Counted from the first letter of the stretch, positions 10,345 through 37,857 are shown. The stretch: 49,941 nt of DNA from an uncultured Muribaculaceae bacterium (GCA_964494015.1 CAZBQC010000002.1:1-49941); one strand, 5' to 3'. Notes: generated from the letters alone by a model not told the origin. Program-made: numbers and translations.

Positions 10345-12102
10345 ATGAAAAGATTATTGATAATTATTTTGTTAATTGTAGCTTTTATGATTAGACCACT
10401 TGTAGTTAGAGCAGATTTAACGGAGACGCAAGCCAATAATATTGCTACTTTTGCTGAACGATTTATTACTGAAGGTAATAAAAGAAGAGATAGTAAAGGG
10501 TATCCTTTGCTTGCTTATAAAAGTAGTGATGCTCGTATTGAGGGTTATTATGAACGTCTTTACTATATAAAAAATGATTATCATCATTATTACAAATCTA
10601 ATGGTAAGAAGGTATACATCAATGGCAATCGCTGGGTATTTAACTGTGACTCTTTTGTTTCCTATGTTTATCGACATGTATATGGTCTTATTCTAACTAA
10701 GAGTAAAACATCAAAAACTGATGGTTATAGCGGTTTAAAAATAATGTCATCGACAGCTGCACCATGGACAATGAGTAATTATATTAACGATGCTGCTGCT
10801 AGTACCCATTTTTATTTTATTAAGAGAAATATTAAAATCGCTAGTTTAAATCTTAGTATTCTTAAAAAGGGAGACTTAATTATTAGGGATACCTCTCATA
10901 TTATGATCTATGTAGGAAATGGTAAGATTGCTCATGCTGCTACTAGTCATTTAGATGGTAGTGTTAAGAAAGATGATATGGGATTACAAGTTACAAACTT
11001 AAAGACTCGTTATCCTGGTACTACAATTAGTGTTGCTCGATTAAAAGATCATATTATTAGTCCAAGTGTCAGTGCCAATATGCAAGTTAGATGGATCGAT
11101 AATGGTCAAGTTATGAATTTGGCTTCAACAACAACAACAACAACAACTACTACACCATCACAGCCAACTAGCGATACAACTAAACCAGTTATCGGTTCGG
11201 TAACAGTTAACACGAATTCGTATAGGTATGCTTTAATATCATTTAGTGCCAGCGATAATACAGGAATAGTCGGCTGGAAAGTTACTAGTAGTCTATCAAC
11301 TCCAACACTTTGGAACAGCGTTGTTACTAATAAAAGTATTAGTATTGCAAACACTTCAGTTGCTTTCAACGGAACATATTATTTATGGGTAAAAGATGGA
11401 GCTAATAATACGGGGTATGAGACCTTTGTCGTTTCCCATATCGATTCCAATAAGCCAGTTATTAGCAGTTTTACATCTATTAAACAAGCTAATGATAAAT
11501 ATGTATTAAAAGTAATTGCTAACGATAATGAGTCCGGTCTTGCTACTAATGCCTATTCTTGGGATGGTAAGAAAACATGGCAAACAATCAACGTTTTGTC
11601 TGTCAGTGAGTTTAAGACATATACGGTATATGTAAGAGATGCTGCCGGTAATGAAACCAATGCTGTCTATACTCTCAAGAGCGAAACTATCGATGATAAG
11701 CAAGCACCAAAGATTACCTATCATAATATTTCAACAGTCGATGATAAACAGCAAGTCAGTATTTTAGCAAGCGATACTGGTGGTTCGGGAGTAGCAGGTT
11801 ACTATGTGTCAAAAAATACATCGAAACCGACAGTCTCATCTAATTGGGTGAGAGTTGGAACCACTAATTATTCATTTGAAGCCGAAGCTGGAAGTTATTA
11901 TCTTTGGGTTATTGACAAGAGTAATAATATATCAAATGAATATTATAAAATAGTCGTCGAAGCAAGTAACAACAGCAAAACAGGATCATCAGTTGGTAAA
12001 AATATCCTTATAATTATCATCTCTATTGTTGTCGGTATTCTTGGATTCTATGCTTATCGCTATTTAAAACGAAATAGTTTCTCTAAAGATAATTATATGT
12101 AA
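10345..12102 (+). CDS. Cell-surface protein: signal peptide, NlpC/P60-like cysteine peptidase domain, poly-Thr linker, three Ig-like repeats, C-terminal TM anchor
   Basis: MKRLLIIILLIVAF signal peptide. NCDSFVSYVY (Cys) and SHIMIYVGNGKIAHA (His) match the NlpC/P60 pattern. T9 linker. Three ~100-aa repeats each contain SD/NDN..G and YYLWV/YTVYV...NN. The tail has ILIIIISIVVGILGFYAYRYLKR. Start moved to the ATG at 10345 (AAGGAGA 4 nt upstream). Confidence 0.7.
   Translation: MKRLLIIILLIVAFMIRPLVVRADLTETQANNIATFAERFITEGNKRRDSKGYPLLAYKSSDARIEGYYERLYYIKNDYHHYYKSNGKKVYINGNRWVFNCDSFVSYVYRHVYGLILTKSKTSKTDGYSGLKIMSSTAAPWTMSNYINDAAASTHFYFIKRNIKIASLNLSILKKGDLIIRDTSHIMIYVGNGKIAHAATSHLDGSVKKDDMGLQVTNLKTRYPGTTISVARLKDHIISPSVSANMQVRWIDNGQVMNLASTTTTTTTTTPSQPTSDTTKPVIGSVTVNTNSYRYALISFSASDNTGIVGWKVTSSLSTPTLWNSVVTNKSISIANTSVAFNGTYYLWVKDGANNTGYETFVVSHIDSNKPVISSFTSIKQANDKYVLKVIANDNESGLATNAYSWDGKKTWQTINVLSVSEFKTYTVYVRDAAGNETNAVYTLKSETIDDKQAPKITYHNISTVDDKQQVSILASDTGGSGVAGYYVSKNTSKPTVSSNWVRVGTTNYSFEAEAGSYYLWVIDKSNNISNEYYKIVVEASNNSKTGSSVGKNILIIIISIVVGILGFYAYRYLKRNSFSKDNYM
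11126..11146 (+). repeat. (CAA)7 trinucleotide microsatellite encoding part of the poly-Thr linker
   Basis: Read directly. It is in frame (ACA codons), so length changes would alter the linker rather than the reading frame. Confidence 0.9.
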
Positions 12103-17273: not shown

Positions 17274-17301
17274 TTGACTTTTTAAATGAAAATCGTATAA
17301 T
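17274..17301 (+). promoter_or_regulatory. Putative promoter of operon 1
   Basis: TTGACT at 17274-17279, a 16-nt spacer, and a consensus TATAAT at 17296-17301. It lies ~120 nt upstream of the small precursor ORF. Confidence 0.55.
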
Positions 17302-17419
17302 AGTTTACAATTATATGGAGACATTATCCTCTTAGAATTAACTTTTTAACTAGTCTATGTAATTATTTGTGTTATAGAATTCGTAAGAATTTTATATAGA
17401 ATAAGAAAGGATGGTTTCA

Positions 17420-17518
17420 ATGAAAAATTTTGAAAAAAAAGTGAATCCAACAATTTCTGTTATCAAAAATAACGGCACAAAAGTTTGTATGGCTGTTGGA
17501 ACATGTCATTGTAACTAA
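17420..17518 (+). CDS. Unannotated 32-aa Cys-rich small ORF; candidate RiPP precursor peptide (MKNFEKKVNPTISVIKNNGTKVCMAVGTCHCN)
   Basis: ATG at 17420 preceded by AGAAAGGATGG. Lys/Asn-rich N-terminal half and a C-terminal CMAVGTCHCN with three Cys. TAA at 17516-17518. It sits immediately upstream of a radical-SAM/SPASM gene and is below the 60-aa cutoff of the ORF track. Confidence 0.65.
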   Translation: MKNFEKKVNPTISVIKNNGTKVCMAVGTCHCN

Positions 17519-17523
17519 TCACA

Positions 17524-17570
17524 CATAAAAGTGGTGTTGGCTATAACGCCGACACCACTTTTATGATTAT
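17524..17570 (+). terminator. Strong hairpin with a U-rich tail between precursor ORF and maturase genes (candidate leaky terminator/attenuator)
   Basis: 18-bp stem CATAAAAGTGGTGTTGGC / GCCGACACCACTTTTATG (one G-U pair), loop TATAAC, then ATTATT. GC-rich core GTGGTGTTGGC...GCCGACACCAC followed by TTTTATGATTATT. Confidence 0.65.
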
Positions 17571-18781
17571 TGAAAGGAGCATGTTGGTTGAACGCATATG
17601 TAAATAATGAAGTAGTAGTTGTAAACAACATCTTTGAAAATAAATTATTTATTTATAATAGAATTAAGCGAATAGATTATGATATAAACGAAGATACTTT
17701 TGATATTATCATGGATATAAAAAAGAACAATTATGAATTGGAACAATTAAAACAGAAATATGGAGAATATTTTATAAATCAATTGTTTGATTTGGAAATA
17801 TTGACACTAACACCTCAAAGTAATTCAATAAATGTTAAAAAAGTTGATAAACAGAATAATGTAAGAATTTTTGCTGAATTAACAGATAAATGTAATTTAA
17901 AATGCAAGCATTGTTATGGATCGTTTGGATATAAAAATAGTAATGAATTGGATTTAGAAGATTTAAAGTTATTAGTTGATAACGCAGCATTAAATGGTGT
18001 ATATCAATTTGATTTGACTGGCGGTGAGCCATTTATATATCCATGTATTGAAGAGTTACTTTGCCACTTATATAATGCTGGAATGTTAGTAAGAATTTTT
18101 ACTAACCTAACCATTTTCGGTAAAAAACAGTTAGATATGATTCTAAAATACGGAGTAAAAAATATTATTACAAGCATAGATTCTTCAAGAAAAAGAATTC
18201 ACGAGGAATTTAGAGGACAAATAGGGTGTTTTGATAAAACAGTCAATTCCATAAATATTTTAAAAGAAAATAATGTGGATGTAACTATTAATACAATGAT
18301 AGGAAATCATAATAAGGATCATGTTGACGAAATTGTAAAGTTCATTGAAGAAATGGAAGTTAAAAGTGTATTAGATGTTATTGTACCCGAAGGTAGGGCA
18401 ATCGCATTAAATGAAGATACATTTGAATCTGCTAATATAATAAAGAATATTTATAGAAATCATTATAGTATTATTGATCCTAATGCAATTTCAATTAATT
18501 GTGGAATAGGAGATCGCTTTGTTTATTTAAAATCTGATGGAAATATATATATTTGTCCAAGTTTAATTTCCAAGGAATACAAAATAGGCAGTATAAAGGA
18601 TTTTGACACTAATGAAATTTGGAGGAAATTATCAAATAAATTTGGGTATTTATGTTGTAAAAAATACAAAATAGAATGTGGTAAATGTAAAGGTGGATGT
18701 AGAGCAAGAGCCCTAAAATTAAATGGAAACATTAATCAAAAAGATGATATTTATTGCATTGTTAATGAGATTGAGAGTTAA
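17570..18781 (+). CDS. Radical SAM/SPASM peptide-modifying enzyme with an N-terminal PqqD/RRE-like extension
   Basis: CNLKCKHCYG (CxxxCxxC), LTGGEPF, and a C-terminal SPASM-type Cys cluster (CGIGDRFVYLKSDGNIYICPS ... CCKKYKIECGKCKGGCRARA ... DIYC). About 95 aa precede the rSAM motif. The likely true start is the in-frame TTG at 17588, 9 nt after AAAGGAG. Confidence 0.8.
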   Translation: MKGACWLNAYVNNEVVVVNNIFENKLFIYNRIKRIDYDINEDTFDIIMDIKKNNYELEQLKQKYGEYFINQLFDLEILTLTPQSNSINVKKVDKQNNVRIFAELTDKCNLKCKHCYGSFGYKNSNELDLEDLKLLVDNAALNGVYQFDLTGGEPFIYPCIEELLCHLYNAGMLVRIFTNLTIFGKKQLDMILKYGVKNIITSIDSSRKRIHEEFRGQIGCFDKTVNSINILKENNVDVTINTMIGNHNKDHVDEIVKFIEEMEVKSVLDVIVPEGRAIALNEDTFESANIIKNIYRNHYSIIDPNAISINCGIGDRFVYLKSDGNIYICPSLISKEYKIGSIKDFDTNEIWRKLSNKFGYLCCKKYKIECGKCKGGCRARALKLNGNINQKDDIYCIVNEIES

Positions 18782-18782
18782 T

Positions 18783-19601
18783 ATGAAGAAATATTTAGGA
18801 ACGGAAAATGCAACATTGGAGTTAAAATTTTTTAATATAAGTAAATATTCGCAATTTTTTAAAAAAAATATAGATTTTATAATATCACAAAATTTTCAGA
18901 GAATAATTTTATATATATCTGATAGTGAAATTGAAATGCTTATTTCAGAAATTAAAGACTTTTTCAATGATACAAATATATTAATAATAATTTATAGTTA
19001 TTTTAAAGAATATAAAGAATTTTCCCTACCAGACAATGTTATATTGGTTAATGAAAATGAAGAAGTTTATGTTGTCGCAAATAAAATATTTAATAGTATT
19101 AAGTTAAATAAAAAATCAGTAGATGCCATTATCCGGTATGTAAAAGATAATAATAATATTATTATTGATGTTACGCCAAATATAAATCACATATCTGAAT
19201 TTAATGAATTGATAACTACTTTAATGACGCACTTGGATGGGATAGCTATTAATTTTTCTGGTTTGATAATTCCTAGTTTCTTGATAAGAGAACATCCCTG
19301 TAATGCTTATTTATGCGATGGTTGGAAGTGTGGTCTACAAATAAGTTGCTTGCCAAAACATATATTAATAGACGATGATTTTAATGTATATCCACATGAT
19401 TTAGTTTATTCGAAATTAAAAATTGGTAATGTAACATCAAATAAATTACAAAATGTATTAGAATCATATCTTGTTTCTGAAGAGTATAAAAATTTTCAGA
19501 TATATAACAAAAATGTATTCATAAAAAAATTAGCAAATTATCCTTTTGATTATATGCCCTTACTGGAATATATAAGATCAGAGGCAGAAAATGATAAGTA
19601 G
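18783..19601 (+). CDS. Radical-SAM-like accessory protein lacking the CxxxCxxC motif but keeping a Cys-rich SPASM/twitch-like segment
   Basis: 272 aa from the ATG at 18783, 1 nt after the previous stop. No CxxxCxxC anywhere. The C-terminal third has HPCNAYLCDGWKCGLQISCLPKHILIDDDFNVYPHD...KIGNV, which resembles the auxiliary-cluster region of SPASM enzymes. Confidence 0.45.
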   Translation: MKKYLGTENATLELKFFNISKYSQFFKKNIDFIISQNFQRIILYISDSEIEMLISEIKDFFNDTNILIIIYSYFKEYKEFSLPDNVILVNENEEVYVVANKIFNSIKLNKKSVDAIIRYVKDNNNIIIDVTPNINHISEFNELITTLMTHLDGIAINFSGLIIPSFLIREHPCNAYLCDGWKCGLQISCLPKHILIDDDFNVYPHDLVYSKLKIGNVTSNKLQNVLESYLVSEEYKNFQIYNKNVFIKKLANYPFDYMPLLEYIRSEAENDK

Positions 19602-20499
19602 AGCAAATATTATTTTAACTCACAATTGTAATTTGAGATGTTTACATTGTTATATAGATGCTAAAACCAGTAGTGAAAATCAAGAAGAAATTTTAACTAG
19701 AACAAAAAAAATTATTTATCAATTATATAAAGATAATGTTAAAAGTATAATGTTTACTGGTGGGGAATGTATGTTATTTAGGCCACTACTAGAACTAATT
19801 AGGTATGCTAAAAATTATCAAATGTCAGTAACGATTTTTACAAATGGAATGATATTTAATAAAGAAATTTTTGATTTAGTTGATGCCGTAAACATTAGTT
19901 TAGACGGAACAAAAGAAATTCATAATTATATTAGACAAAATAATTATTCTTATGATAATGTAGTTAAAGTTTTGGATTATTTAAAAAAAATCGATAAATA
20001 TACTACTATTCAAATGACGATAAATAACTTGAATGTTAATGATTTGGATTTTTTATCTCCGTTATTAATGCAGCACTTAAATGTTAGAACAGTGAAATTA
20101 GTTTTTATATCATCAGATGGTAGAGCAATAGAAAATAATTTAGTACATGAACATACACATATTGATAAAATATATGATAAAATTGATACTCTTTATGAAG
20201 CCACGAAATATCATATTCAATTTGTTCCAAGTATTATTAATAAATATGATTTTGAAAATTATTATGTAAGTGGAGTATTGGATTTTGCTCTATGGATAGA
20301 TGTTCCGGAAAATACTTATTATTTTATAAGTAATAAATATATGCCTAGTCATACATTGGATGATTTTAATATACAAGAAGCAAATAGATGCAATAACAAA
20401 ATTAAACAAATTATCTCAGATAGCAAATCTTTAATAATTAAAGATGAGTATATTAATTTGGAAAAAACACTTTCTGAATTAATTAAGGGAGAATTATAA
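19591..20499 (+). CDS. Radical SAM enzyme (core domain only, no SPASM Cys cluster)
   Basis: THNCNLRCLHCY and FTGGECMLF. Only one further Cys occurs in the C-terminal 200 aa. It overlaps the previous gene by 11 nt. Confidence 0.75.
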   Translation: MISRANIILTHNCNLRCLHCYIDAKTSSENQEEILTRTKKIIYQLYKDNVKSIMFTGGECMLFRPLLELIRYAKNYQMSVTIFTNGMIFNKEIFDLVDAVNISLDGTKEIHNYIRQNNYSYDNVVKVLDYLKKIDKYTTIQMTINNLNVNDLDFLSPLLMQHLNVRTVKLVFISSDGRAIENNLVHEHTHIDKIYDKIDTLYEATKYHIQFVPSIINKYDFENYYVSGVLDFALWIDVPENTYYFISNKYMPSHTLDDFNIQEANRCNNKIKQIISDSKSLIIKDEYINLEKTLSELIKGEL

Positions 20500-22442
20500 T
20501 GAATGAAAAGCCAGTAATGACATTAGGAATATTCGCTCATGCGAATGCCGGAAAAACTACTATAACAGAGCAATTATTGTATCATACCAATGTAAAAAAG
20601 ACTCGTGGCAGAGTAGACAATGGTGACACTACAACAGATAATTTAAAAGTAGAGCGTGAAAGAGGTGTATCAGTCAGAGCTTCTTTAGTGACTTTATCTT
20701 TGAGTGATAGGAAAGTACAATTAATTGATACTCCAGGACATGTAGATTTTTCTGCTGAAGTAGAAAGAGCAATCAGTGTACTTGATGGTGCAATTTTAGT
20801 AGTATCGGGTGTTGAAGGTGTTGAATCACAAACACAAGTGATATGGAAAATATTAATGGAAAGGAATATTCCAACATTAATATTTATTAATAAAATGGAT
20901 AGAGTGGGTGCTGATTATGATAGAGTAATTGCTGAAATGAAAGCTAAATTAAGTACCAATATACTTCCTATAGTTAAAGTAAAAAAAGAACAGGATGGTA
21001 CGCTTTCATATAAAGATGTGAAAATTGAAAATATAATAGAAGATATAGCAAGTTATGATGATAATATTTTAGAAAGATATTTGAACGATGAAAAAATATC
21101 AAGAGAATGGTTAGAAGAGCAAGTCAAAAGAATGGCACAAACTGGATTATTATATTTAGTTTATGGTGGAAGTGCATTGCTAGATGAAGGTATGTATCAT
21201 TTAATTAATGGAATATCATCCTATTTACCTGTAGCATCAAAATCAAAATCGTCAGATTTTACTGGGTATATATATACAGTAAAAAGAGATGCTGGAGTTC
21301 GAGAGTTATATGTAAAAGTATTAGAAGGTGAATTAGAAAACAGATATGAGTTTATCACTGATCATGGTTTAAAACAAAAAGTTAGAACAATAACAAAACT
21401 AGAAGGAACGAAACGAACAAGAAGCGAAAGATTAGAAACCGGAGAGATAGGTATTATTACTGGACTTGATGCAAAATGTGGAGATCTTATTGGTAAACCA
21501 ATTCCTAATTTTAAACCTTTTTCATTTGTTAATCCATTATTTCATACTTCTATAACTACTAATAGCAATAGATTACATGAGTTGGTAACTGCTCTTGAAA
21601 TATTAAACGATGAAGATCCATCATTGAATTTACAATACAATAATAATACTGGACAAATTAGCATTGATTTAATGGGAAATTTGCAATCAGAGATAATTGC
21701 AAATATAATAAAGGATAGGTTTCAAATTGATGCAGTATTTTCTGATCCAATAATAATTCATCGTGAAACTCCAATATCTATTGGAAAAGGTGAATGTACT
21801 TTTGATAGGGTATCAGCAGTTGAATTTGAAATTCAGCCTTTACCAATTGGAAGTGGATTACATTACTCATCAAAAATTTCAACCGACTATTTGTTTGCAA
21901 AATACCAAAAACAAATTGAAAAGTTAATAAGAAGTTATTTAAAACAAGGTTTGTATGGTTGGGAAGTTACTGATGCAATGATAACATTAATAGGTGGTAA
22001 GAGCGACTCTGTTTGTTCAGATCCATCACACTTTAATGTGATTGTTCCTCTTGCTTTTATGAGAGCCTTAAAAAATGCTGAAATGCAATTAGAAGAACCA
22101 ATGATGAAATATGAAATAACTGTACCAAACGAAAATATTAGACAAGTATTATCTTCCGTTTCATCATTAGGAGTTAAATATGAAAAAATAATAACTTTAT
22201 CTGAAAACTCCATAATTCCAGGTAATGCACCATTGTCCAGTATAATTGATTTACCGACAATAATAACTAGATTAACCGGTGGTCATGGCAGTTTAATAAA
22301 GAAACCAAATGGTTATCAACCACGTCCAAATATAGATTTGATTGAAAAGAAAGTTATTGGTAGAGATCCAAGAAATGAAATATTATTTTTAATGGATATG
22401 GGGTGCAGTATGGAACATATTGATAGGTCGAAAAGGAAATAA
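20499..22442 (+). CDS. Translational GTPase of the Tet(M)/Tet(O) ribosomal-protection / EF-G-like family
   Basis: 647 aa, which is ribosomal-protection-protein length and shorter than EF-G. G1 AHANAGKTT, G2-region GRVDNGDTTTDNLKVERERGVS (compare Tet(M) [22 protein letters not shown], recalled from memory), G3 DTPGHVDF, G4 NKMDR. The start ATG overlaps the preceding stop (TAATG). Confidence 0.75.
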   Translation: MNEKPVMTLGIFAHANAGKTTITEQLLYHTNVKKTRGRVDNGDTTTDNLKVERERGVSVRASLVTLSLSDRKVQLIDTPGHVDFSAEVERAISVLDGAILVVSGVEGVESQTQVIWKILMERNIPTLIFINKMDRVGADYDRVIAEMKAKLSTNILPIVKVKKEQDGTLSYKDVKIENIIEDIASYDDNILERYLNDEKISREWLEEQVKRMAQTGLLYLVYGGSALLDEGMYHLINGISSYLPVASKSKSSDFTGYIYTVKRDAGVRELYVKVLEGELENRYEFITDHGLKQKVRTITKLEGTKRTRSERLETGEIGIITGLDAKCGDLIGKPIPNFKPFSFVNPLFHTSITTNSNRLHELVTALEILNDEDPSLNLQYNNNTGQISIDLMGNLQSEIIANIIKDRFQIDAVFSDPIIIHRETPISIGKGECTFDRVSAVEFEIQPLPIGSGLHYSSKISTDYLFAKYQKQIEKLIRSYLKQGLYGWEVTDAMITLIGGKSDSVCSDPSHFNVIVPLAFMRALKNAEMQLEEPMMKYEITVPNENIRQVLSSVSSLGVKYEKIITLSENSIIPGNAPLSSIIDLPTIITRLTGGHGSLIKKPNGYQPRPNIDLIEKKVIGRDPRNEILFLMDMGCSMEHIDRSKRK

Positions 22443-22451: not shown

Positions 22452-23579
22452 ATGATAGATATAAGATTAAAAAAAATGGCCGAATCAATTATTAAATATT
22501 CACTTAATATAAGACCAGGGGAAAAAGTTTTAATTGATTCCAGTAAAAATTGTAGTGAAATGATTAAATATTTAATTGAATTAATTGCAAATAATGGTGC
22601 AATTCCATTAGTAATTATTAAAGAAAATGATATTCAAAGAAGCTTAATAATGAACGGTAGTCAAGAACAGTTTGAAATTATGAGGAAGCACGAACAAATG
22701 TTACTAGAGTGTGTTGATGTATATATTAATATGATGGATTCGGATAATTGTTATGATATGTCTGATATTCCAAGTGATAAACGGTCACTATATCAGCAAT
22801 ATTATTTCAAGCCAATTAATTTTGAAGTAATTATGCCAAAACTTAGATGGATAACTGTAGACTATCCATCCGTGTCATCAGCACAACAATTTGGCATGAG
22901 TACAGAAGCATATGAAAAATATTTCTTTGATGCTGTCAATACAGATTATAAAGAGTTACATACCGCAATGATACCTTTAAAAAACATACTTGATAAGGGA
23001 AGGCATGTTCAAATAACATCTCCAGATACAACAAATTTATCTTTTGATATAACCGAATTTAAAGCTGTGATTTGTAGTGGTAAAATAAATATTCCTGATG
23101 GAGAGGTGTTTATTGCTCCAGATTTAAAATCATTAAATGGAACAATTAAATTTAATGTTCCATCTCGTTACTCTGGAAAGCAATTCTCGAACATTTTTCT
23201 TACATTTGAGAATGGTAAAGTAATTAGTCATAATTCAGATACGAATAGTTCTTCACTAACCTCTTTATTGGATATTTCTGAAGGCAATAGATATGTTGGA
23301 GAATTTGCTATAGGAACAAACCCAAACATTGATACACCAAGGACAAACATTTTATTTGATGAAAAAATATTAGGCTCTATTCATTTAGCCTTAGGAAATA
23401 GTCATAGTTTAAGTGACAACGGAAATGTTGGATCAATTCATTGGGATATGGTTAAAATGTTAACTCCTGAATATGGCGGTGGAAGTGTTATTATTGATGA
23501 TCGATTGATTCAAGAAAATGGAATATTTATTCCAGAAGAATTAAAGTCCCTACATTCTAAAAAATTAGTTAGGAAATAA
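22452..23579 (+). CDS. M29-family aminopeptidase (AmpS/PepS-like)
   Basis: IKYSLNIRPGEKVLI, INIPDGEVFIAP, GEFAIGTN, IHLALGNS and IHWDMV follow the thermophilic-metalloprotease M29 motif order. Confidence 0.75.
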   Translation: MIDIRLKKMAESIIKYSLNIRPGEKVLIDSSKNCSEMIKYLIELIANNGAIPLVIIKENDIQRSLIMNGSQEQFEIMRKHEQMLLECVDVYINMMDSDNCYDMSDIPSDKRSLYQQYYFKPINFEVIMPKLRWITVDYPSVSSAQQFGMSTEAYEKYFFDAVNTDYKELHTAMIPLKNILDKGRHVQITSPDTTNLSFDITEFKAVICSGKINIPDGEVFIAPDLKSLNGTIKFNVPSRYSGKQFSNIFLTFENGKVISHNSDTNSSSLTSLLDISEGNRYVGEFAIGTNPNIDTPRTNILFDEKILGSIHLALGNSHSLSDNGNVGSIHWDMVKMLTPEYGGGSVIIDDRLIQENGIFIPEELKSLHSKKLVRK

Positions 23580-23629: not shown

Positions 23630-24103
23630 ATGGAATTAGTTCAAATTAAACAAAAAGATTTAGAAATATTAGAAAGGTTATTGCAGTTATATTTACACGA
23701 CATTAGTAAATATTTTCCAATAGAATTTGAGGAAAATACAGGGTTATATCTGTATGATGGTTTAGACAAATATTTTGATGGTTCAAAAAATTATGCTTAT
23801 TTTATAAAATTAGAAAAAAAAATAGCCGGCTTTATTTTGGTTGATTCTAATGAAAATGAAAAAATTATTCAAGAAATGTTTGTTTTAAATCATCATAAAA
23901 ACAAAGGTATTGGTAAATTAGCTGTTTGCAAAGTGTTAGAGAATAGTAAAGGTAATTGGATTATAAAGTCCTTACCGAATTCTGAACCTGCTGAAAGATT
24001 TTGGGATAGAACAATAAAAGAATATACTAATAATAGTTATCATGTTGAACATGTTGGTAGATATAATAGAGCTGTTTTTACTTTTAATAATAGTGATAAA
24101 TAA
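23630..24103 (+). CDS. GNAT-family N-acetyltransferase
   Basis: 157 aa. Acetyl-CoA-binding region QEMFVLNHHKNKGIGKLAV and C-terminal AERFWDRTIKEY. Strong RBS AAGGAGG. Confidence 0.7.
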   Translation: MELVQIKQKDLEILERLLQLYLHDISKYFPIEFEENTGLYLYDGLDKYFDGSKNYAYFIKLEKKIAGFILVDSNENEKIIQEMFVLNHHKNKGIGKLAVCKVLENSKGNWIIKSLPNSEPAERFWDRTIKEYTNNSYHVEHVGRYNRAVFTFNNSDK

Positions 24104-24104
24104 T

Positions 24105-25295
24105 ATGGAAGTATATTTAAGAAGAAAGAGTGAGGAATTAGAGTTTTTGTCTGGTTTTATAGATAATGAATTTCAGCATGCTCGTTTGATTGCACCAGCC
24201 AATGTTATATCAGTAAAAGAGCAAATAACTAAAGAGATTAGAAATAAAAACAGTATAAAATACTATCATGAATTAACAAATAAAACTAAAATTGGATTCA
24301 ATGATATATTTGAATACAACTATACATATGAACGATTTAATGGTTTTATAAAAATTCCATATTTTGCGAATGATTTTTATCATATAGAAAAAAATGTTAT
24401 CACAGAAACTTATTTTTCTAATTGTGGTATGAGTTCCATAGTTTCGCTTTTATCATCAATAATTTCCGCAAATGATTGTAGTGTGGACTTAATGTATGAG
24501 GAAACTTACTTTGAAACAATAAAGTTTCTTAGTTCGATAATAAAAGTAAAAAATCAAGATTTTTTTCTTTATATTGATTCAATAGCAAGTAATTTTAGCT
24601 TTCTTGATGATTTTAATTCTGATAATTATCTTGGAGTAATTATTGATACAACTTGTTTTGTTGGTGAAGATTATAAAAAAATGATAAACTATATAATATC
24701 GACAGGAACACCATGTGTTTTAGTACGTAGTCATACTAAAATAGATTTACTTGCAACAGAATACTCACATATTGGATCCGTTTCATTTATTTATCCGAAA
24801 ATTGAAAATAATAAAACAAAGAGAGTAAAAAAAGTTGAAACTGATTGTAAACATTTAATAGGTGTTTTTGGAGCTTGTTTACCTCCAGAAAAGTTTCCAA
24901 CTTTTATATTAAATAATAAAATAAAAACATTAAATAATAACAGAATAAAAATTGTTAATGAAAACAATAGTTTATTCTTTTCTATTTTGAAAGATTATAA
25001 AATTAATGTGATTTTACCGAATCATAGGCAATTCTGCTTGATATATTTAAAAACCATTTCAGGTACATTAGAGGATTTAAAACAGAAAATATATAATTTT
25101 TGCAAAGAAAATGAGAAGGAATTTCTAACTTACTCAGCTGTAAGTTTTGGTTTTGATTATATTTCCATTGACTGTTATCAAAATTTTGTGGATTCAACAT
25201 TTAAAATTAGGGTATGTATAAATGATTTTCCAAAATTAGTTATAGAAAGCTTCGCTTACAAATTTATTGAATTTTTAAAAATAATTGATGACTAA
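24105..25295 (+). CDS. Hypothetical protein; possibly a divergent fold-type I PLP enzyme (Cys/Met-metabolism family-like)
   Basis: ATG 1 nt after the GNAT stop. The order of FSNCGMSSIVSLL, YEETY, VIIDTTCF and VLVRSHTKIDL parallels the SSGmaAi / Y.gT / vDnTfatP / hSaTKyl motifs of cystathionine synthase/lyase-type enzymes. Weak similarity judged by eye only. Confidence 0.35.
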   Translation: MEVYLRRKSEELEFLSGFIDNEFQHARLIAPANVISVKEQITKEIRNKNSIKYYHELTNKTKIGFNDIFEYNYTYERFNGFIKIPYFANDFYHIEKNVITETYFSNCGMSSIVSLLSSIISANDCSVDLMYEETYFETIKFLSSIIKVKNQDFFLYIDSIASNFSFLDDFNSDNYLGVIIDTTCFVGEDYKKMINYIISTGTPCVLVRSHTKIDLLATEYSHIGSVSFIYPKIENNKTKRVKKVETDCKHLIGVFGACLPPEKFPTFILNNKIKTLNNNRIKIVNENNSLFFSILKDYKINVILPNHRQFCLIYLKTISGTLEDLKQKIYNFCKENEKEFLTYSAVSFGFDYISIDCYQNFVDSTFKIRVCINDFPKLVIESFAYKFIEFLKIIDD

Positions 25296-25617: not shown

Positions 25618-26487
25618 ATGATGAAAATAAAAAAGCTTCCAATGGATGAATTAAGGATATCGATTACTTCAAGTTGCAATATGAAGTGTTACTATTGTCA
25701 CAATGAAGGAAATAGATTAACAAGCAAACTAGATATTAATGATATAGATTCATTAATAAACGCTGCAATGAAATTTGGATTAAAAAGTATCAGATTGACT
25801 GGTGGAGAACCAATGATCTGTAATGATATTTTCAGTATTTGTAGCATGATAAAAGAAAAATATAATTTAAAAATAGGTATAAATACTAATGGCATCGAAA
25901 TAGATAAAATATTAGAATTGATTGATTCTAATTTAATTGATAGAGTGGTAGTAGGAATAGATTATTTCAATAATAAGATATCTAAGAATTCACCAGTTGG
26001 TATATGTTCTAAAGATATTTTAAGAAATATTGAATTAATCAAAAAAAGAGGTATTGGTGTTACTATTGCAACAGTTTTTGATAATGATTATAGTGATATA
26101 GAACAGTTATTTAATTGGGCTTTAACACATGACATTAGAATAAAAATTTTGGAAAAGATAGATGATGAACAAAGTGATGTTACATCTCCAGCTTATATAA
26201 AAATTAGAGATCAAATTATAGATAAATATAATTTAATACCTAAAATAGATCCTATTTTTAATGAGTTACATGGTTATCTTGGTGGAAAGAGAGTTGTTTC
26301 TTTTTTTCATTCTCATTGTCGAATAAGGGAGTGCAGATTATGTAAAAACATGCACTTGAGAGTCATGAGTAGTGGGAAGCTAAAGCCTTGTTTGCTAAAT
26401 ACGGAAACAGAAGTTGATTACAAGATAGGAAATGTTGAAAAAAATATTGTTACAGCTATTGATTTATTAGGGATACCACCTAAATAA
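25618..26487 (+). CDS. Radical SAM enzyme, MoaA-like (GTP 3',8-cyclase family architecture)
   Basis: LRISITSSCNMKCYYCHNEG, IRLTGGEPM, and a C-terminal second cluster region CRIRECRLCKNMHLRVMSSGKLKPCL. No other molybdopterin genes are in the window. Confidence 0.55.
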   Translation: MMKIKKLPMDELRISITSSCNMKCYYCHNEGNRLTSKLDINDIDSLINAAMKFGLKSIRLTGGEPMICNDIFSICSMIKEKYNLKIGINTNGIEIDKILELIDSNLIDRVVVGIDYFNNKISKNSPVGICSKDILRNIELIKKRGIGVTIATVFDNDYSDIEQLFNWALTHDIRIKILEKIDDEQSDVTSPAYIKIRDQIIDKYNLIPKIDPIFNELHGYLGGKRVVSFFHSHCRIRECRLCKNMHLRVMSSGKLKPCLLNTETEVDYKIGNVEKNIVTAIDLLGIPPK

Positions 26488-26496: not shown

Positions 26497-26540
26497 AAAA
26501 ATATGAATAAGCTTTAATAATAAAAACTTATTCATATTTT
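26497..26540. terminator. Bidirectional intrinsic terminator between convergent genes
   Basis: AAAATATGAATAAG / CTTATTCATATTTT stem with A/T flanks. Confidence 0.7.
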
Positions 26541-27314
26541 TGTGGATTTAATTTTTACTCTGTAATTATTTGAATCAAAACTAATATCTCTGGTTACATA
26601 ACTATATAATTTATTTAGTGCCTCCATATGTTCTTTCATACCTTTGGAATGGTTTAAAGAAGCCTGATCAAATAGATTAATGAACTCTTGTTCAGGAATA
26701 TTTTTAAAGGTTTTTTCTCGATATCCAGTATTGTCATGATATAATTTGTTAACTCTTGAAATAGACAACTCTGGAAATCCATACAATTGATGATAAAAAC
26801 TCCTGATTCTATCTACTAATATAGGATATAAATGAAAAAAGTAAGGATTTTTTTCTTCATACAGTATTATAAGATGTTTAATCTTATTATTCATAAATGA
26901 AATAAAATCTTTTGCCTCATCGTCTGTTAAGCCTGGGAGTGGCATACTATATAATTGAAGGACGTAGTCCTGTAATTTTTTTATATTACCGTTTCTATCA
27001 AATAAAATTTGACCATGTCCTATTGTTGATAGCAAAACATTACTTTGATTTTTAAAGTCATTCATCGCTCTAGCATATATTTCCTGAATGGGTTTTTCAT
27101 AATATTCTATGATAAAATCATCTGTTTTTTGATATCCTCTTATCAAATGATTTAAATCATCATTATTGAAAATAATTTGTAAGTCTAGATCTGAATCTTT
27201 TGTATTATAGCCTGTTAAATAACTTCCGTAAAAAACAATTCCTTCGACATTATCATTTTCAAGATATCCCATCATTTTTATAAATTTTCTTAAAGCTTCT
27301 TGATAGGAATTCAT
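26532..27314 (-). CDS. Nucleotidyltransferase-domain protein (pol-beta superfamily; possibly an antibiotic nucleotidyltransferase)
   Basis: N-terminal GIVFYGSYLTGYNTKDSDLDLQIIF (GS...D.D motif) and a helical C-terminal domain. The substrate cannot be inferred. Confidence 0.55.
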   Translation of the reverse strand: MNSYQEALRKFIKMMGYLENDNVEGIVFYGSYLTGYNTKDSDLDLQIIFNNDDLNHLIRGYQKTDDFIIEYYEKPIQEIYARAMNDFKNQSNVLLSTIGHGQILFDRNGNIKKLQDYVLQLYSMPLPGLTDDEAKDFISFMNNKIKHLIILYEEKNPYFFHLYPILVDRIRSFYHQLYGFPELSISRVNKLYHDNTGYREKTFKNIPEQEFINLFDQASLNHSKGMKEHMEALNKLYSYVTRDISFDSNNYRVKIKSTKI

Positions 27315-28444: not shown

Positions 28445-28729
28445 ATGAATAAAAGAAAACTATGGAGTAAAAAAGAAAAAATTAGAGTTGTTAGAAAAGT
28501 GTTAAGTACGAATAAATCCCTATCGACAATTGCTAAAGAAGAATCTCTCGATGTGAAAATTATTATTAGATGGGTAAGAAAGTATAATAATGAAGGAGAA
28601 AATGGTCTATCATCAAATAGGAATAAGACTTTAGCTAAGAGGACCACTCAAGAAAAAACACTAGGTTGGGAGCTGGAAAATATATTATCAAAAAAAGTTT
28701 ATTGGCTGAAAGAGGGTGTTCAAATTTAA
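28445..28729 (+). CDS. IS3-family transposase OrfA (HTH)
   Basis: WSKKEKIRVVRKVLSTNKSLSTIAKEESLDVKIIIRWVRKY is a typical IS3 OrfA helix-turn-helix. Confidence 0.8.
   Translation: MNKRKLWSKKEKIRVVRKVLSTNKSLSTIAKEESLDVKIIIRWVRKYNNEGENGLSSNRNKTLAKRTTQEKTLGWELENILSKKVYWLKEGVQI
28690..28697 (+). other. Programmed -1 ribosomal frameshift heptamer A AAA AAA (G)
   Basis: In the orfA frame the codons read TCA AAA AAA GTT. A -1 slip gives ...KKSLLAERGCSNLKV, which is the orfB frame. Confidence 0.7.
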
Positions 28730-29619
28730 AAGTTGCTTCCTCTCTTAAATTAAAGTATGCCATTATTCATCAACTTAGGAAGAATTATTCTATTAAATTT
28801 TTGTGTGATCGTTTAGATATCAATCGTAGCAGTTATTATAAGTGGTTAAAAAGCGATTGTGGTCACAGGCAAAGAAAAAAAAGAGAGAAATTAATTAAAC
28901 TTATCAACGTTATTCATGAAAACTATCCAACTTACGGATATCGAAGAATTGGATTTTTAGTTAGAAAAAGATTTAATGTTTCTGATCAATACATATATAA
29001 ATGTTGTTCATACTTAGGAATAAAGTCAAAAGTTAAAAGAAATAAGTCGAGAAATAAACCTTTAGGCATCAATAAGTATGATAATCTTGTCAATAATAAG
29101 TGGAATACTTTAAGGCCTTTAGAAATAGTAATATCTGATACCACTACTATTAATCATTGCACAGGCGAGTACAATTTAACTTTATATATTGATGCATTCA
29201 ATAATGAGATTATTAGCTATGATCTAACTGAGAAGGGACATGAAGAACTTTCTTCTCATCTTAAAGCTTTGACTAGATTTATTAAGATAAAAAAGAGTCG
29301 AGGTTACTTTAATATTAGAACGATTCTTCATACTGATCAAGGAGCAATATATGCTTCTGATGTTTTTAATGCTATTTGCAAGAACAATAATATTATTCAC
29401 AGTATGTCGAGGTTGGGTAAACCGACTGACAATGCCAAAATAGAGGCGATTAACGGTTGGATTAAACAAGAAATGGAAACAGACTTCCATTTTTTTTATG
29501 TACAAAATATTGCTCAGTTCATTAAAAAATATGTTAACTACTACAATACTGAGCGACCATCCTATAAGTTAGGTAATAAGACACCTCTTGGGTATAGGCT
29601 TGATTGTCATTTTAAATAA
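28696..29619 (+). CDS. IS3-family transposase OrfB part (DDE/rve integrase core), expressed as an OrfAB fusion
   Basis: YGYRRI, VISDTT (D), LHTDQGAIYAS (D) and GKPTDNAKIEAINGWIKQE (E). Confidence 0.8.
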   Translation, partial: SLLAERGCSNLKVASSLKLKYAIIHQLRKNYSIKFLCDRLDINRSSYYKWLKSDCGHRQRKKREKLIKLINVIHENYPTYGYRRIGFLVRKRFNVSDQYIYKCCSYLGIKSKVKRNKSRNKPLGINKYDNLVNNKWNTLRPLEIVISDTTTINHCTGEYNLTLYIDAFNNEIISYDLTEKGHEELSSHLKALTRFIKIKKSRGYFNIRTILHTDQGAIYASDVFNAICKNNNIIHSMSRLGKPTDNAKIEAINGWIKQEMETDFHFFYVQNIAQFIKKYVNYYNTERPSYKLGNKTPLGYRLDCHFK

Positions 29620-33783: not shown

Positions 33784-33946
33784 AACCATTGTATTTGGGA
33801 ATGTATCCCCAAGGTTATTTTATTGTTGCGGTATTTAATTAATTTGGGGGACTGATTTTCGGATTCTCAATTTTTATTATAAAAAGCGGAGATTATGAAA
33901 TAAAAATTATAAGATAATTTATGTGTAGCAGTCCATGGAGGATTTT

Positions 33947-36043
33947 ATGGAAGAAGATAAGATAACTGTTGTTGTACCTATGTATAATAGTGAAAAATAT
34001 ATAGAACGTTGTCTAAAATCCATATGCAATCAATCGTATCAAAATCTAGAAATTATTGTAATAGATGATGGAAGTACAGATAATAGTAAATTTATTGTTG
34101 AAAAGCTACAAGAAAGTGATTCAAGAATCAATTACTTTTACCAAGAAAATAAAGGACCAGGTTTAGCTAGAAATGTTGGGATTGAAAACGGAATAGGCAA
34201 ATATATTTCTTTTATTGATAGTGATGATGAAATAAGAAAAACATTTATTGAAGTTCTTTACAAAACTATAAGAAAAGACGACAGTTTTTCCTTAACTGGT
34301 GGATATATGATTTATCAAGATGGATCAACCGAAAAATCATTTTTAACAACAAAAACAGAAACTAAGAACTTTAAAGTTCCTATCTGTTGTAATAAACTAT
34401 TTAATTTTGAATTAATTCGAAAAAATAACTTAAGATTTCAGGGACTATATTATGCAGAGGATATAGATTTTTGGGGAAGAATTTTAATGATTAATGATAA
34501 TTTTTCGATTGCAAATGACTATTTATATTTATGCTATTTTAGAGAAGATTCTTTGACTAGAAGTTACACAGATAAAAGTATAATTTATCAAATATTCTAT
34601 GTAGTAGATAACATAGAAAAACTTGCAAAAGAAAATGAAAAGTTCGATCAGTATAAAGATAGCTTAGAATTTTTAAATATAAAAGAAATTTTTATAAGGG
34701 CAATGAAACAAATTAGTCAAATGCCTAGTTTCAGTGACTATGACATAATTAAAATGCTTGAATATGTCGAGGCAAAATATCCTAATTGGTATTATAATAA
34801 ATATATCAGATCTTCCTTTGATAAATATAGAAAGAAAAGATTGGAATTGTTATTTAAAAAAGATTTTGCCGGTTTAATTAGTTATCTTAGACAATTAAAT
34901 TCAGGATATGTAGTTCAATCTGATGAAGAGATTTTAGCACAAAATATTATTAATCATTCCATTGCTGTTGAAAAAGGACAAGCAGTTCAAATTAGGTATA
35001 AAAGCACGAAGTGTAATCCGTTAGTTATACAATTAATTAGAGAAATTCAAGAAAAAGGAGCAATTGCTATTACTAGATTTCAGGATGCAGAATTAGAAAG
35101 GGTTACAAAAGAAACATATGACATTTATGCAATGACTAAGTTGGCCGGGATAATTACAAGAGAATCTGAATTTTATGATTCATTTATATCAATTGGATAT
35201 AGTGAAAATGATTATGATTCATCAAAAAGTAATGAAAACCCAGCTAGTAGAATACTTATTAGTAATCTTACGGATTATAATAAAATTGTTCGTAATAAAA
35301 AGGGGATAGTACTTTCTTATCCTTCTCCTTTAGATGCGCATAAGTCAAAAATGACTACAGAGGAATATAAGAGATATGCTTTTTCTATTTTAAATTATGA
35401 TTACAAGTCACTTAAGTCAAAAATGGTACCATTACAGAAATTAATAGAGAAAACGAAAAAAGTTTCTATATTAGGTAAAGATACAGAGTTAAGTTTTCTT
35501 ATTGAAAATATAGGTGGAATTATCATGGCGGGAGAAGTTAATATTCCGGATGGAGAAGTATATACTGCTCCAATTAGAAATAGTGTCAATGGAATAGTAA
35601 AGTTTAATGTCCATAGCAAATACATGGGAAATGTTTACGAAAATGTGATATTAGAATTTAAAAATGGAAAGATTATTGATTTTAATTGTAACAATCCAAA
35701 TGATTTTAAAGGTATCATAGATATTGACGAGGGTAGTAGGTATATTGGAGAATTTGCTTTAGGAGTTCATCCGTTAATACTTCATCCTATATTAAGTACT
35801 CTTCATGATGAAAAAATATATGGCAGTTTTCATTTGGCATTAGGGCAGTCTTATAGGAATGCTTATAATGGAAACGATTCCAATATACATTGGGATTTAA
35901 TTGATATTCAGAGAAATGATTATAATCCAGGTAAAATATATTTTGATGAAGAATTAGTAAGAGAAAATGGAGAATTTATTTTGGATGATTTAAAACCATT
36001 AAATGACAAAAGAGCTTATACATTAACTACAAGGAGAAGATAA
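33947..36043 (+). CDS. Bifunctional fusion: N-terminal family-2 glycosyltransferase plus C-terminal M29 aminopeptidase domain
   Basis: GT2: ITVVVPMYNSEKYIERCL, IIVIDDGSTDNS and FIDSDD. M29: VNIPDGEVYTAP, GEFALGVHP, FHLALGQS and IHWDLI. Start preferred at the ATG at 33947 (GGAGG 5 nt upstream); the track start is 33935. Confidence 0.75.
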   Translation: MEEDKITVVVPMYNSEKYIERCLKSICNQSYQNLEIIVIDDGSTDNSKFIVEKLQESDSRINYFYQENKGPGLARNVGIENGIGKYISFIDSDDEIRKTFIEVLYKTIRKDDSFSLTGGYMIYQDGSTEKSFLTTKTETKNFKVPICCNKLFNFELIRKNNLRFQGLYYAEDIDFWGRILMINDNFSIANDYLYLCYFREDSLTRSYTDKSIIYQIFYVVDNIEKLAKENEKFDQYKDSLEFLNIKEIFIRAMKQISQMPSFSDYDIIKMLEYVEAKYPNWYYNKYIRSSFDKYRKKRLELLFKKDFAGLISYLRQLNSGYVVQSDEEILAQNIINHSIAVEKGQAVQIRYKSTKCNPLVIQLIREIQEKGAIAITRFQDAELERVTKETYDIYAMTKLAGIITRESEFYDSFISIGYSENDYDSSKSNENPASRILISNLTDYNKIVRNKKGIVLSYPSPLDAHKSKMTTEEYKRYAFSILNYDYKSLKSKMVPLQKLIEKTKKVSILGKDTELSFLIENIGGIIMAGEVNIPDGEVYTAPIRNSVNGIVKFNVHSKYMGNVYENVILEFKNGKIIDFNCNNPNDFKGIIDIDEGSRYIGEFALGVHPLILHPILSTLHDEKIYGSFHLALGQSYRNAYNGNDSNIHWDLIDIQRNDYNPGKIYFDEELVRENGEFILDDLKPLNDKRAYTLTTRRR

Positions 36044-36044
36044 A

Positions 36045-37166: not shown

Positions 37167-37845
37167 TATTTTAGGGAAAAAAATAGACAGAAACCAATTA
37201 GATATTATAAATAAAATAATGAAAGTAAAAAATAAAATTCTTTTTTTAAAATCCATCCCTCAAACAGGGAAAACAGCAGTTCTAAAAAGATTATTTGACA
37301 TCAATAATGATAAAATAAAAATGTTTATTACTGGATGTAATCCAAAAAACATGAAGTTTATTGACGATAGTGTTTTATTTGAAATAAACTCATGTATTAA
37401 TAAAAATAGGAATGAAAATATATCAATTTTTTTTGATGAATACTATAATTGTAAAATTTTGGATTATTTTAAACATAATAAATTAGATAATGTAAGTGTA
37501 TATATTAGTACTAATAAAATAAGTAAAGAAATTAGTTATGATGTTGAAATAATAGATATATACGAAGATGTATTTAGAGGTTTAGATAAATTCATGTTTT
37601 CAAAATATTCGGTTGATATCTCTACAAAAGTTCGTAAAAGAAGTATTTCAATAATGGAACTTATGGAAATTGTCAAAATTCTTCAAAATAAAAAGTATTT
37701 AAATTATTCTGTTGATAAATTACTTTTATTCCTTCAAAATAAGCTAAAAAGTAAAAAAATTAAAAGATTTTTACCGACGACTACGGCAATACTTTATATA
37801 AATAAAGATTATCAAATGTTAAAAACATTTGAGTTCAAAGAATAG
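37147..37845 (+). CDS. Hypothetical protein with P-loop NTPase-like Walker A/B motifs
   Basis: SIPQTGKTAVLKRL (Walker-A-like) and ISIFFDEYY (Walker-B-like). Overlaps the previous gene by ~20 nt. Start at TTG 37147 or ATG 37150/37156. Confidence 0.35.
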   Translation: MMNMKNDILGKKIDRNQLDIINKIMKVKNKILFLKSIPQTGKTAVLKRLFDINNDKIKMFITGCNPKNMKFIDDSVLFEINSCINKNRNENISIFFDEYYNCKILDYFKHNKLDNVSVYISTNKISKEISYDVEIIDIYEDVFRGLDKFMFSKYSVDISTKVRKRSISIMELMEIVKILQNKKYLNYSVDKLLLFLQNKLKSKKIKRFLPTTTAILYINKDYQMLKTFEFKE

Positions 37846-37857
37846 TGGGGTAATTAA

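Follow-up and report, generated by a model that had tools for sequence, protein, structure and literature searches.

A ribosomal-protection-type GTPase in a radical SAM peptide cassette of uncultured gut bacteria, a candidate self-immunity factor

Results

A translational GTPase gene coupled to radical SAM genes

The DNA sequence studied here, referred to as the window, is a stretch of 49,941 nucleotides from an uncultured Muribaculaceae bacterium (GCA_964494015.1, CAZBQC010000002.1:1-49941). Its G+C content is about 28% and, as the S10/spc ribosomal-protein operon lies at its right end, the window is chromosomal. It includes the gene of a translational GTPase that resembles ribosomal protection proteins (RPPs). 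This gene is part of a cassette with the order precursor peptide, hairpin, radical S-adenosylmethionine enzyme with a SPASM domain (rSAM/SPASM), unk292, second radical S-adenosylmethionine (rSAM) enzyme (rSAM302), GTPase, M29 aminopeptidase, small GNAT protein and unk417 (Table 1).

The GTPase had been proposed in an initial annotation of the window, and the corresponding open reading frame (ORF) is real. All of the motifs then quoted were located in the translated sequence (AHANAGKTT at residues 13-21, DTPGH at 77-81 and NKMDR at 131-135), as was the switch-I-region string GRVDNGDTTTDNLKVERERG at residues 37-56. The TAATG overlap described for the two adjacent genes is also present: the TAA stop codon of rSAM302 occupies nucleotides 20497-20499 and the ATG of the GTPase gene nucleotides 20499-20501, one base being common to both. 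A Shine-Dalgarno sequence (GGGAG, 20487-20491) is located 8 nt upstream of this ATG. At homologous loci, the junction with the upstream rSAM gene is again an overlap of 1 nt, an overlap of 8 nt or a gap of 9 nt. The protein matches the Pfam families GTP_EFTU (2.4e-50), EFG_III, EFG_IV and EFG_C, the match of the GTPase domain being far above chance level.

The GTPase belongs with RPP-like proteins, in a clade of its own

The best NCBIfam model for the GTPase is tet_protect (NF012153, 4.3e-158), with a score of 527.3 bits that does not reach the cut-off of 775. The specific Tet and Otr(A) models scored 286-373 bits, each of them under its cut-off (TetM/W, 364 bits vs 1100; Otr(A) NF000120, 373 vs 900; Tet(Q), 337 vs 1425; Tet(M), 286 vs 1420), and the EF-G models, likewise under their cut-offs, 284-309 bits (TIGR00484, 284 vs 659; the EF-G2 model gave 218 vs 890). 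When sequences of the PDB were searched, Tet(O) (7.9e-94) and Tet(M) (1.8e-86) came first, followed by EF-G (4.9e-72). Comparison with annotated plasmid genes gave identities of 35% for TetB(P), 31-32% for Tet(O/W/S), about 30% for Tet(M) and about 26% for EF-G. The G motifs DTPGH, NKMD and SAL are all present, the P-loop (AHANAGKT) being atypical. An AlphaFold2 model (predicted local distance difference test score 83.9, predicted template modelling score 0.74) has the five-domain fold of EF-G and Tet(M). With this model, Foldseek matched both EF-G and Tet(M) (3j9y) at E <= 1e-48, strong matches to both by which the fold comparison cannot tell one from the other.

Trees were then constructed by neighbour-joining from 41-42 sequences, with fetched reference genes that left out Tet(Q), Tet(T) and Tet(36). 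The query and all GTPases that share 40% identity or more with it fall into a single clade (bootstrap 1.0), and the classical Tet(M/O/W/S) and TetB(P) proteins form a different one. The RPP-like sequences taken together are split from EF-G with a bootstrap value of 0.94. The phylogeny hence bears out the proposal that the GTPase stands outside the EF-G clades and with the ribosomal protection proteins. The designation Tet(M)/Tet(O)-like holds in part: RPP-like character is backed by models and tree, but the protein lies outside the Tet(M)/Tet(O) group, in a clade of its own and with 527 bits against the 775 demanded by the family model. Judged from its sequence, the GTPase has an RPP-like architecture, yet is no member of the tetracycline RPP group.

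P-loop, domain IV loops and C-terminal extension

Proteins of the clade share the P-loop FAHANAGKTT, as against AH(V/I)DAGKT in Tet proteins, EF-G and RF3. The Asp-to-Asn change (window positions 20535-20561, residues 13-21 of the GTPase) is invariant across the clade. An exhaustive search of 1.84 billion representatives at 50% identity was performed, and the best 150 matches were inspected. AHANAGKT was present in 22 of these 150 (ranks 1-13 plus nine further matches down to rank 142) and the canonical Asp in the remainder, so that essentially all of the top-ranked matches carry the variant motif. In other GTPase families, an Asn in the P-loop coordinates K+; the catalytic consequences of AHANAGKT may be of interest.

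Loop III of domain IV reads G-K-S-D-S-V-C-S-D-P-S-H-F in the clade, G-L505-Y-Y-S508-P-V-S-T-P-A-D-F in Tet(M) and G-S-Y-H-E-V-D-S-S-E-M-A-F in EF-G. The resemblance to Tet(M) claimed in the initial annotation does not extend to the loop III tip that contacts tetracycline, where five of the six residues are changed (L505-Y506-Y507-S508-P509-V510 in Tet(M), K-S-D-S-V-C in the query) and only the equivalent of S508 is retained. Over the whole loop, equivalents of S508, S511, P513 and F516 are kept. It has been reported for Tet(M) that loop III and the C-terminal helix are functionally critical, and that deletion of L505 abolishes tetracycline protection (PMC4750697). As the tip is not conserved, tetracycline is, on sequence grounds, unlikely to be the cognate drug of the GTPase.

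Loop I of domain IV lacks 5 residues relative to Tet(M) and 7 relative to EF-G, and the EF-G sequence GGRGQYGH is absent. This sequence being the translocation loop I of EF-G, its deletion indicates that the GTPase is no translocase; the His motif of EF-G loop III (SYH.VDSS) is also replaced. At the other end of the protein, residues ~620-647 (GRDPRNEILFLMDMG...KRK) form a C-terminal extension (CTE) that aligns with that of Tet and TetB(P) proteins, EF-G stopping earlier. The CTE of the clade has a conserved motif (G.DPRNE..F.M) followed by a basic tail, and the AlphaFold2 model predicts a helix within it, at residues 627-633.

The GTPase gene is linked to the rSAM cassette in other genomes

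We next examined homologous loci from other genomes; locus counts given here and below take in near-identical contigs from different samples. Homologs of the GTPase with identities of 85, 68, 67, 59, 56 and 49% are found in the same cassette, with varied flanks and often beside integrases or transposases. A systematic linkage screen was performed by tblastn over 105 fetched loci. Wherever the GTPase had 55% identity or more to the query (16 loci), rSAM/SPASM, unk292, rSAM302 and M29 were encoded too, in the same order, and locus P0063, with a GTPase of 49% identity, likewise carries the cassette. When the search was reversed and unk292 used as bait in metagenome contigs, the GTPase gene was adjacent in 14 of the 15 loci; the fifteenth contig begins inside the cassette, precisely where an upstream GTPase gene would be lost. 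Overall, the synteny comprises more than 25 loci in many flanking contexts. Co-occurrence with rSAM genes, first suggested by the arrangement in the window, is thus found in both directions and tolerates permutation of the gene order; it is essentially obligate. The earlier argument that the tight coupling speaks against insertion of the GTPase gene by chance is strengthened to the point that synteny and phylogeny effectively exclude such an event.

The position of the GTPase gene within the cassette is variable. In cassettes of types A and B, it lies in the middle, with rSAM302 conserved immediately upstream and M29 (49-91% identity) adjoining it in all loci. It is the first gene in locus L047, from a metagenome-assembled genome (MAG) of the Clostridia, where a 40%-identical GTPase is encoded upstream of the precursor and the cassette is otherwise orthologous (M29 66% identical). 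In locus P0036 it comes last, behind M29 and GNAT, and in L043 it directly follows a precursor ending in ...SSCHCSA. Six loci contain a minimal cassette consisting of precursor (MKSINKKVVVKAENVTTSNASCHYHI/V, ending in ...SCHYH), rSAM/SPASM and GTPase, the latter being clade members of 43-47% identity. The rSAM/SPASM protein of this version has 451 aa, and its best matches are peptide maturases of the CefB/PapB type, under cut-off. Two further variants were found: L042 comprises four rSAM genes, an unk292 homolog, an S8 protease, the GTPase and two ABC exporters, and the L044 cluster M29, rSAM, amidohydrolase and GTPase.

Members of the clade come without exception from metagenomes or MAGs of uncultured gut bacteria (‘Bacilli’, Mycoplasmataceae-like bacteria and Clostridia), and one cluster of GTPase genes at 90% occurs on 162 contigs. 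Where public records give a name, as NCBI does for two of the proteins, it is ‘TetM/TetW/TetO/TetS family tetracycline resistance ribosomal protection protein’.

Some neighbours of the GTPase gene were restricted to particular variants. Directly downstream of it, in loci of the minimal type C and of type F, there is a gene for a conserved class I methyltransferase of ~335 aa (12007-13023 in L032, 12016-13023 in L044) with an N-terminal extension of ~190 aa, which may belong to those systems. Family searches gave this protein marginal matches only, the EmtA rRNA methyltransferase included (E = 0.003-0.02), and no assignment as rRNA methyltransferase was made. A split tRNA-synt_1b gene (TrpRS/TyrRS-type) follows M29 in L009 (L009/L010 region) and a class I LeuRS-type gene precedes the precursor in L011, both possibly representing coincidental housekeeping context.

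GTPase genes beside decayed maturase genes

Some clade members (L013-L016 and L031) are not adjacent to rSAM genes. L013 and L014 are stand-alone copies of the GTPase gene; in L015 and L016, the gene lies beside a pseudogenised maturase. In L015 the GTPase gene is intact, and its product (673 aa) has 94% identity to the copy included in the L030 cassette. Within the 400 nt upstream of this gene there are frameshifted, stop-interrupted remnants that match the L030 maturase at residues ~230-330; the precursor gene is gone. As the GTPase was retained after biosynthesis had been lost, the finding fits an immunity or resistance gene and speaks against a purely biosynthetic role. The case for immunity to a product that would target the ribosome is hence strengthened by orphan GTPase genes whose neighbouring maturase has decayed.

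The orphan gene of L031, 87% identical to that of L030, has an in-frame TAG at 11153-11155 but is otherwise conserved; the gene may be decaying, or the sequence may have been misassembled.

The precursor peptide and the remaining genes of the cassette

Features of the cassette are listed in Table 1. Orthologous precursors occur at the same position in all cassette loci. They have a leader K(P)TITVVK and a core (C)MAVG(T/V)CHCN, CMAVSSCHCSA or ACASGTCHCSA, hence ending in CHCN or CHCSA. At least 10 distinct precursor variants are present in CHC-type cassettes and 4 in those of the CHYH type. The hairpin that follows the precursor gene in the window was identified by eye and by folding; its predicted stability is -29.9 kcal/mol (z = -8.8), and none of 200 shuffled sequences was equally stable. 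In eight other loci the precursor is also followed by a hairpin, different in sequence and in several instances with a U-tract. This order of precursor and hairpin gives the leaky-terminator layout that is typical of structural genes of ribosomally synthesized peptides with post-translational modifications (RiPPs). As its core is conserved and a conserved hairpin follows, the precursor acts as a real structural gene. We had also considered the small ORF as a mere leader or attenuator peptide of the tet(M) type; this was dropped, since the core is conserved and the adjacent rSAM/SPASM proteins resemble peptide maturases.

Table 1. Features of the GTPase-containing cassette and its vicinity (window coordinates)
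Feature	Position	Strand	Remarks
Sigma-70-like promoter match	17274..17301	+	TTGACT-16-TATAAT, 11/12; best site, intergenic, upstream of precursor
Precursor peptide gene	17411..17518	+	likely start at second ATG (17420) behind AAAGGA; product MKNFEKKVNPTISVIKNNGTKVCMAVGTCHCN
Perfect 18-bp hairpin, attenuator/leaky-terminator type	17524..17565	+	directly after precursor stop
rSAM/SPASM, peptide-maturase-like enzyme	17570..18781	+	403 aa; Pfam Radical_SAM 3.2e-23, weak SPASM
unk292, cassette-specific Cys-motif protein	18723..19601	+	likely ATG 18783; conserved REHPCNAYLCDGWKC motif
rSAM302, second radical SAM enzyme, without SPASM	19591..20499	+	302 aa; Radical_SAM 1.5e-18, Fer4_12
RPP-like translational GTPase, AHANAGKT clade	20499..22442	+	647 aa; main finding
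M29 (AmpS/PepS-type) metallo-aminopeptidase	22452..23579	+	Pfam Peptidase_M29 3.6e-48; candidate leader-trimming protease
Small GNAT-like acetyltransferase	23630..24103	+	157 aa; weak Pfam Acetyltransf_1/7/10
unk417, conserved protein	24042..25295	+	homologs ~394 aa, hence likely start near 24105
MoaA-like radical SAM protein	25618..26487	+	289 aa; 320-nt gap before it; NCBIfam MoaA 117-123 bits, below cut-offs

Promoter-like sites are not in excess (90, vs 86.9 in shuffled sequences); the only hint, a weak one, is where the best of them lies. A scan for terminator-like sites found none between 17.3 and 26.5 kb, the same scan having missed the hairpin after the precursor.

Orthologs of rSAM/SPASM, 44-83% identical, are encoded in all cassette loci. 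Since the alignments with homologs start near residue 7, the TTG at 17588, behind AAAGGAG, is the likelier start of this gene; no NCBIfam model reached its cut-off with the 403-aa protein. Searches of Pfam and NCBIfam gave no family match for unk292 or for unk417. The gene of unk292 precedes that of the rSAM enzyme devoid of SPASM, and its product may be a split-off auxiliary Fe-S (SPASM- or twitch-like) partner of that enzyme. The GNAT gene is kept in type A cassettes and moved upstream in type B. unk417 is present in cassettes of types A and A' (43-81% identity), and its sole hydrophobic segment is within the N-terminal extension that is probably not translated. It is uncertain whether the MoaA-like rSAM protein, which stays under the cut-offs of the GTP 3',8-cyclase models, belongs to the cassette; the other cassette loci have no ortholog at that position.

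Surroundings of the cassette

A gene for a nucleotidyltransferase (Polbeta/NTP_transf_2; 26532-27314, minus strand), with weak matches to the MntA antitoxin and to PADLOC PDC-S09, is convergent with the end of the GTPase-containing operon (operon 1). A second rSAM cluster, without a GTPase gene, spans nucleotides 33935-41732 and encodes, in this order, a GT2-M29 fusion, an rSAM/SPASM protein, a 232-aa protein, another rSAM/SPASM protein, a 42-aa ORF, an HD-domain protein and a GNAT protein. The 42-aa ORF (39179-39307, MKNKDKNFDAIMKKLLNNKKVKIKVPTYNSKVMMAHWSNGYN) is a candidate precursor, and the M29 domain of the fusion is 37% identical to the M29 protein of operon 1. Between the two rSAM clusters there is an IS3-family transposase gene (rve/HTH_21; 28666-29619); integrases and transposases flank homologous cassettes elsewhere too (L001, L002, L006). 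Both clusters are immediately upstream of the S10/spc operon (42050-49941), which includes S10, L3, L4, L2, L22, S3, L16, L14, L5 and L6. In many bacteria rpsL-rpsG-fusA-tuf are found upstream of this operon. Near the left end of the window, a gene for an abortive-infection-like Abi_2 protein (1962-2915) is followed by one for an HtrA-type trypsin/PDZ protease (2908-4014), with several genes for cell-wall hydrolases (Amidase_3, LysM, SleB-like) in their vicinity; the hydrolases hint at a Firmicute that forms spores.

Discussion

The GTPase as a putative immunity protein

Taking into account the RPP-like architecture of the GTPase, its linkage to peptide-maturation genes and its persistence next to a decayed maturase, we favour the interpretation that it is a ribosome-protection-type self-immunity protein against a small, rSAM-modified RiPP that inhibits translation, and we assign to it a probability of roughly 60%. 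The nearest precedents are Otr(A), which serves self-resistance within the oxytetracycline cluster, and the self-resistance proteins of the ARE-ABCF type that producer strains have. The ribosomal target of the peptide, the protection conferred by the GTPase and the site of action are all three elements that we infer. According to this interpretation, the precursor of ~30 residues, with its ...CHCN core of ~9 residues, would give rise to a small rSAM-modified peptide that the M29 aminopeptidase would trim. The peptide would then block translation; its binding site on the ribosome would be in the factor-binding, decoding or A-site region, or close to it. Like Tet(M) and Tet(O), the GTP-bound GTPase would occupy the factor site of the ribosome, and its domain IV loops and CTE would reach the inhibitor site and either dislodge the inhibitor or stop it from rebinding. 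GTP hydrolysis would finally free the GTPase from the ribosome, and translation could resume.

Several observations weigh against this interpretation. The AHANAGKT P-loop is without precedent among the translational GTPases compared, and its effect on the predicted GTPase activity is uncertain. With its shortened loop I, the protein may be unable to extend as far as the site of tetracycline binding or of decoding. The window cassette and most cassettes of types A and B encode no exporter, which is unusual for a secreted antibiotic, and L042 alone has ABC exporters among the versions compared; neither an exporter nor a multi-pass membrane protein was found in the window cassette or in the minimal three-gene cassette. 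The position of the GTPase gene in the window, fixed between two biosynthetic genes and translationally coupled, would fit a role in peptide production, too. As to the phylogeny, the query clade and the classical Tet clade were joined in the first tree with a bootstrap value of 0.79, a strict sister relation that the larger tree does not recover, and Otr(A) is represented in the trees only by an unverified Streptomyces homolog (L068).

As most versions of the cassette are devoid of an exporter, an intracellular role can be envisaged, with the peptide as an endogenous ribosome ligand and the GTPase as its release factor. The unexported peptide would brake the cell's own ribosomes, in a dormancy- or hibernation-like state or as part of a toxin-antitoxin-like pair, and the GTPase would remove it and restart translation. 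The tight translational coupling of the GTPase to the maturases and their strict one-to-one linkage agree with such control, as does the above-mentioned lack of membrane proteins. However, L042 has the two ABC exporters and the S8 protease that would be expected for a secreted RiPP, an orphan GTPase gene beside a decayed maturase is better understood as protection from a neighbour's product, and the integrases and transposases that adjoin the cassettes are reminiscent of mobile bacteriocin loci. We therefore regard endogenous control as unlikely.

A direct function in peptide production, whereby the GTPase would rescue ribosomes on the precursor mRNA, present the precursor, nascent or already released, to the rSAM enzymes or act as a scaffold, appears quite unlikely to us. 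The place of its gene, behind rSAM302, with which it overlaps by 1 nt, and ahead of M29, would be in keeping with it, and the GTPase is encoded in every assessable cassette and is one of just two proteins of the minimal three-gene version. Yet the gene can be first, middle or last in the cassette; the L047 GTPase is merely 40% identical to the query although the M29 protein of the same locus is 66% identical; and the intact orphan GTPase outlasts the loss of precursor and maturase. We know of no RiPP pathway that uses a translational GTPase.

It is also conceivable, though we deem it very unlikely, that the peptide hits EF-G or the EF-G-ribosome complex, the GTPase standing in as a resistant copy or titrating the drug as a decoy. 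Fusidic acid and argyrin act on EF-G or on the EF-G-ribosome complex, producers of elfamycins and thiopeptides protect themselves by resistant copies of the target, and the GTPase has an EF-G-like five-domain fold. Nevertheless, the deletion of loop I and the replacement of the loop III His motif make catalysis of translocation implausible, the protein branches with RPPs and not with EF-G, and a stoichiometric decoy would have no need of conserved GTPase motifs.

Finally, that an ordinary acquired tetracycline-resistance gene landed in the operon by chance, or that the gene encodes a housekeeping paralog of the EF-G2 type that has nothing to do with the peptide, is hardly tenable: the two NCBI records and the best-scoring tet_protect model would favour the former, but tet_protect stops at 527 of 775 bits and each specific Tet model far under its cut-off, the clade is separate (bootstrap 1.0), the loop III tip is changed in five of six residues, L505 included, and the rSAM synteny recurs in more than 25 loci in many flanking contexts, by which synteny together with the phylogeny the chance insertion is ruled out; a housekeeping EF-G or EF-G2 is ruled out by the lower scores of the EF-G models, the tree, the absent translocation loops and the lack of a str-operon context.

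Two other candidates were rejected. As regards anti-phage defence, the similarity to pVip that PADLOC returned (57-69 bits) was generic and confined to the rSAM core, and the GTPase gave no more than a marginal P-loop match. The possibility that the rSAM enzymes modify the GTPase, in a diphthamide-like manner, was dropped, as nothing beyond adjacency supports it.

A wider and rather doubtful proposal is that AHANAGKT GTPases and C-H-C/Y peptides constitute a new two-component ribosome system, with the rSAM-modified peptide as a ribosome ligand of a new class and the GTPase loading or removing it. RPPs would have begun in this way in the Firmicutes, as partners of endogenous peptide ligands, the clinical Tet(M) and Tet(O) representing a later exaptation to tetracycline.

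Novelty and implications

The literature searched in full text contains no account of RiPP or rSAM clusters that encode an RPP-type or RPP-like GTPase. A survey of bacterial translational GTPases published in 2007 treated Tet proteins solely as tetracycline-resistance factors (PMC1780047). What is new here is the RPP-type clade, the type of cluster and the presumed ligand; target protection of the RPP type was already known.

Should the GTPase indeed confer immunity, a resistance gene would mark a new group of tiny rSAM-modified, ribosome-targeting peptides (core of ~9 residues) in uncultured gut Bacilli and Clostridia. It would provide a resistance-guided lead to a new translation inhibitor, possibly with a new binding site on the ribosome. 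It would also be the first protection factor of the RPP type, derived from EF-G, with a peptide and not a tetracycline as cognate ligand, which would widen the scope of the mechanism and bear on the long-standing question of the origin of Tet(M)/Tet(O)-type proteins. Moreover, these genes abound in gut metagenomes of humans and animals; if their function is immunity to a peptide, the figures for tetracycline resistance in resistome surveys are too high. With regard to the mechanism of translational GTPases, the invariant P-loop Asp-to-Asn change is of interest in itself.

Comparison with known systems

The closest known proteins are the tetracycline RPPs Tet(M/O/W/S) and TetB(P), which have in common with the GTPase homology over the full length (28-35%), a similar size (639-652 aa, vs 647 aa), the five domains, G1-G5 with the catalytic PGH, and a CTE. 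They differ from it in the P-loop (AHVDAGKT in Tet, AHANAGKT in the GTPase), in the loop III tip (GLYYSPV vs GKSDSVC), in loop I, which has 5 residues less in the GTPase, and in the CTE, which in the GTPase is longer and has its own DPRNE..F.M motif and basic tail. The genetic context is also different, as the GTPase gene is found in an rSAM peptide cluster, whereas Tet RPP genes are carried by Tn916-like elements or plasmids. The logic proposed here is that of Otr(A) from Streptomyces rimosus, an RPP-type GTPase encoded within the biosynthetic cluster of a translation inhibitor. The Otr(A) cluster is of the type II polyketide synthase kind; that of the GTPase is a RiPP (rSAM) cluster of low-GC gut Firmicutes, and its product would have no tetracycline scaffold.

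Factor-type protection of a target is also exerted by ARE-ABCF proteins (LmrC, VarM, OleB) and FusB-type proteins, which are encoded in or near biosynthetic clusters and in which an NTPase, bound to ribosome or factor, displaces the drug (PMC8161019, PMC8546547). Their folds, an ABC ATPase and the FusB zinc protein, are unrelated to that of the GTPase, and so are their sites: they act from the E site, reaching the peptidyl transferase centre, or on EF-G, while the GTPase would be expected at the factor-binding position of the A site. With respect to the peptide, the cassette resembles the rSAM/SPASM RiPP systems of Firmicutes (sactipeptides, ranthipeptides, SCIFF, CefB/PapB) in having a short Cys-containing precursor, a hairpin, a maturase and a peptidase. 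Unlike them, it specifies a core of ~9 residues with an invariant C-terminal C-H-C/Y, its maturases are under every NCBIfam cut-off, most versions are devoid of ABC immunity or export, and an M29 aminopeptidase is combined with an EF-G-like GTPase.

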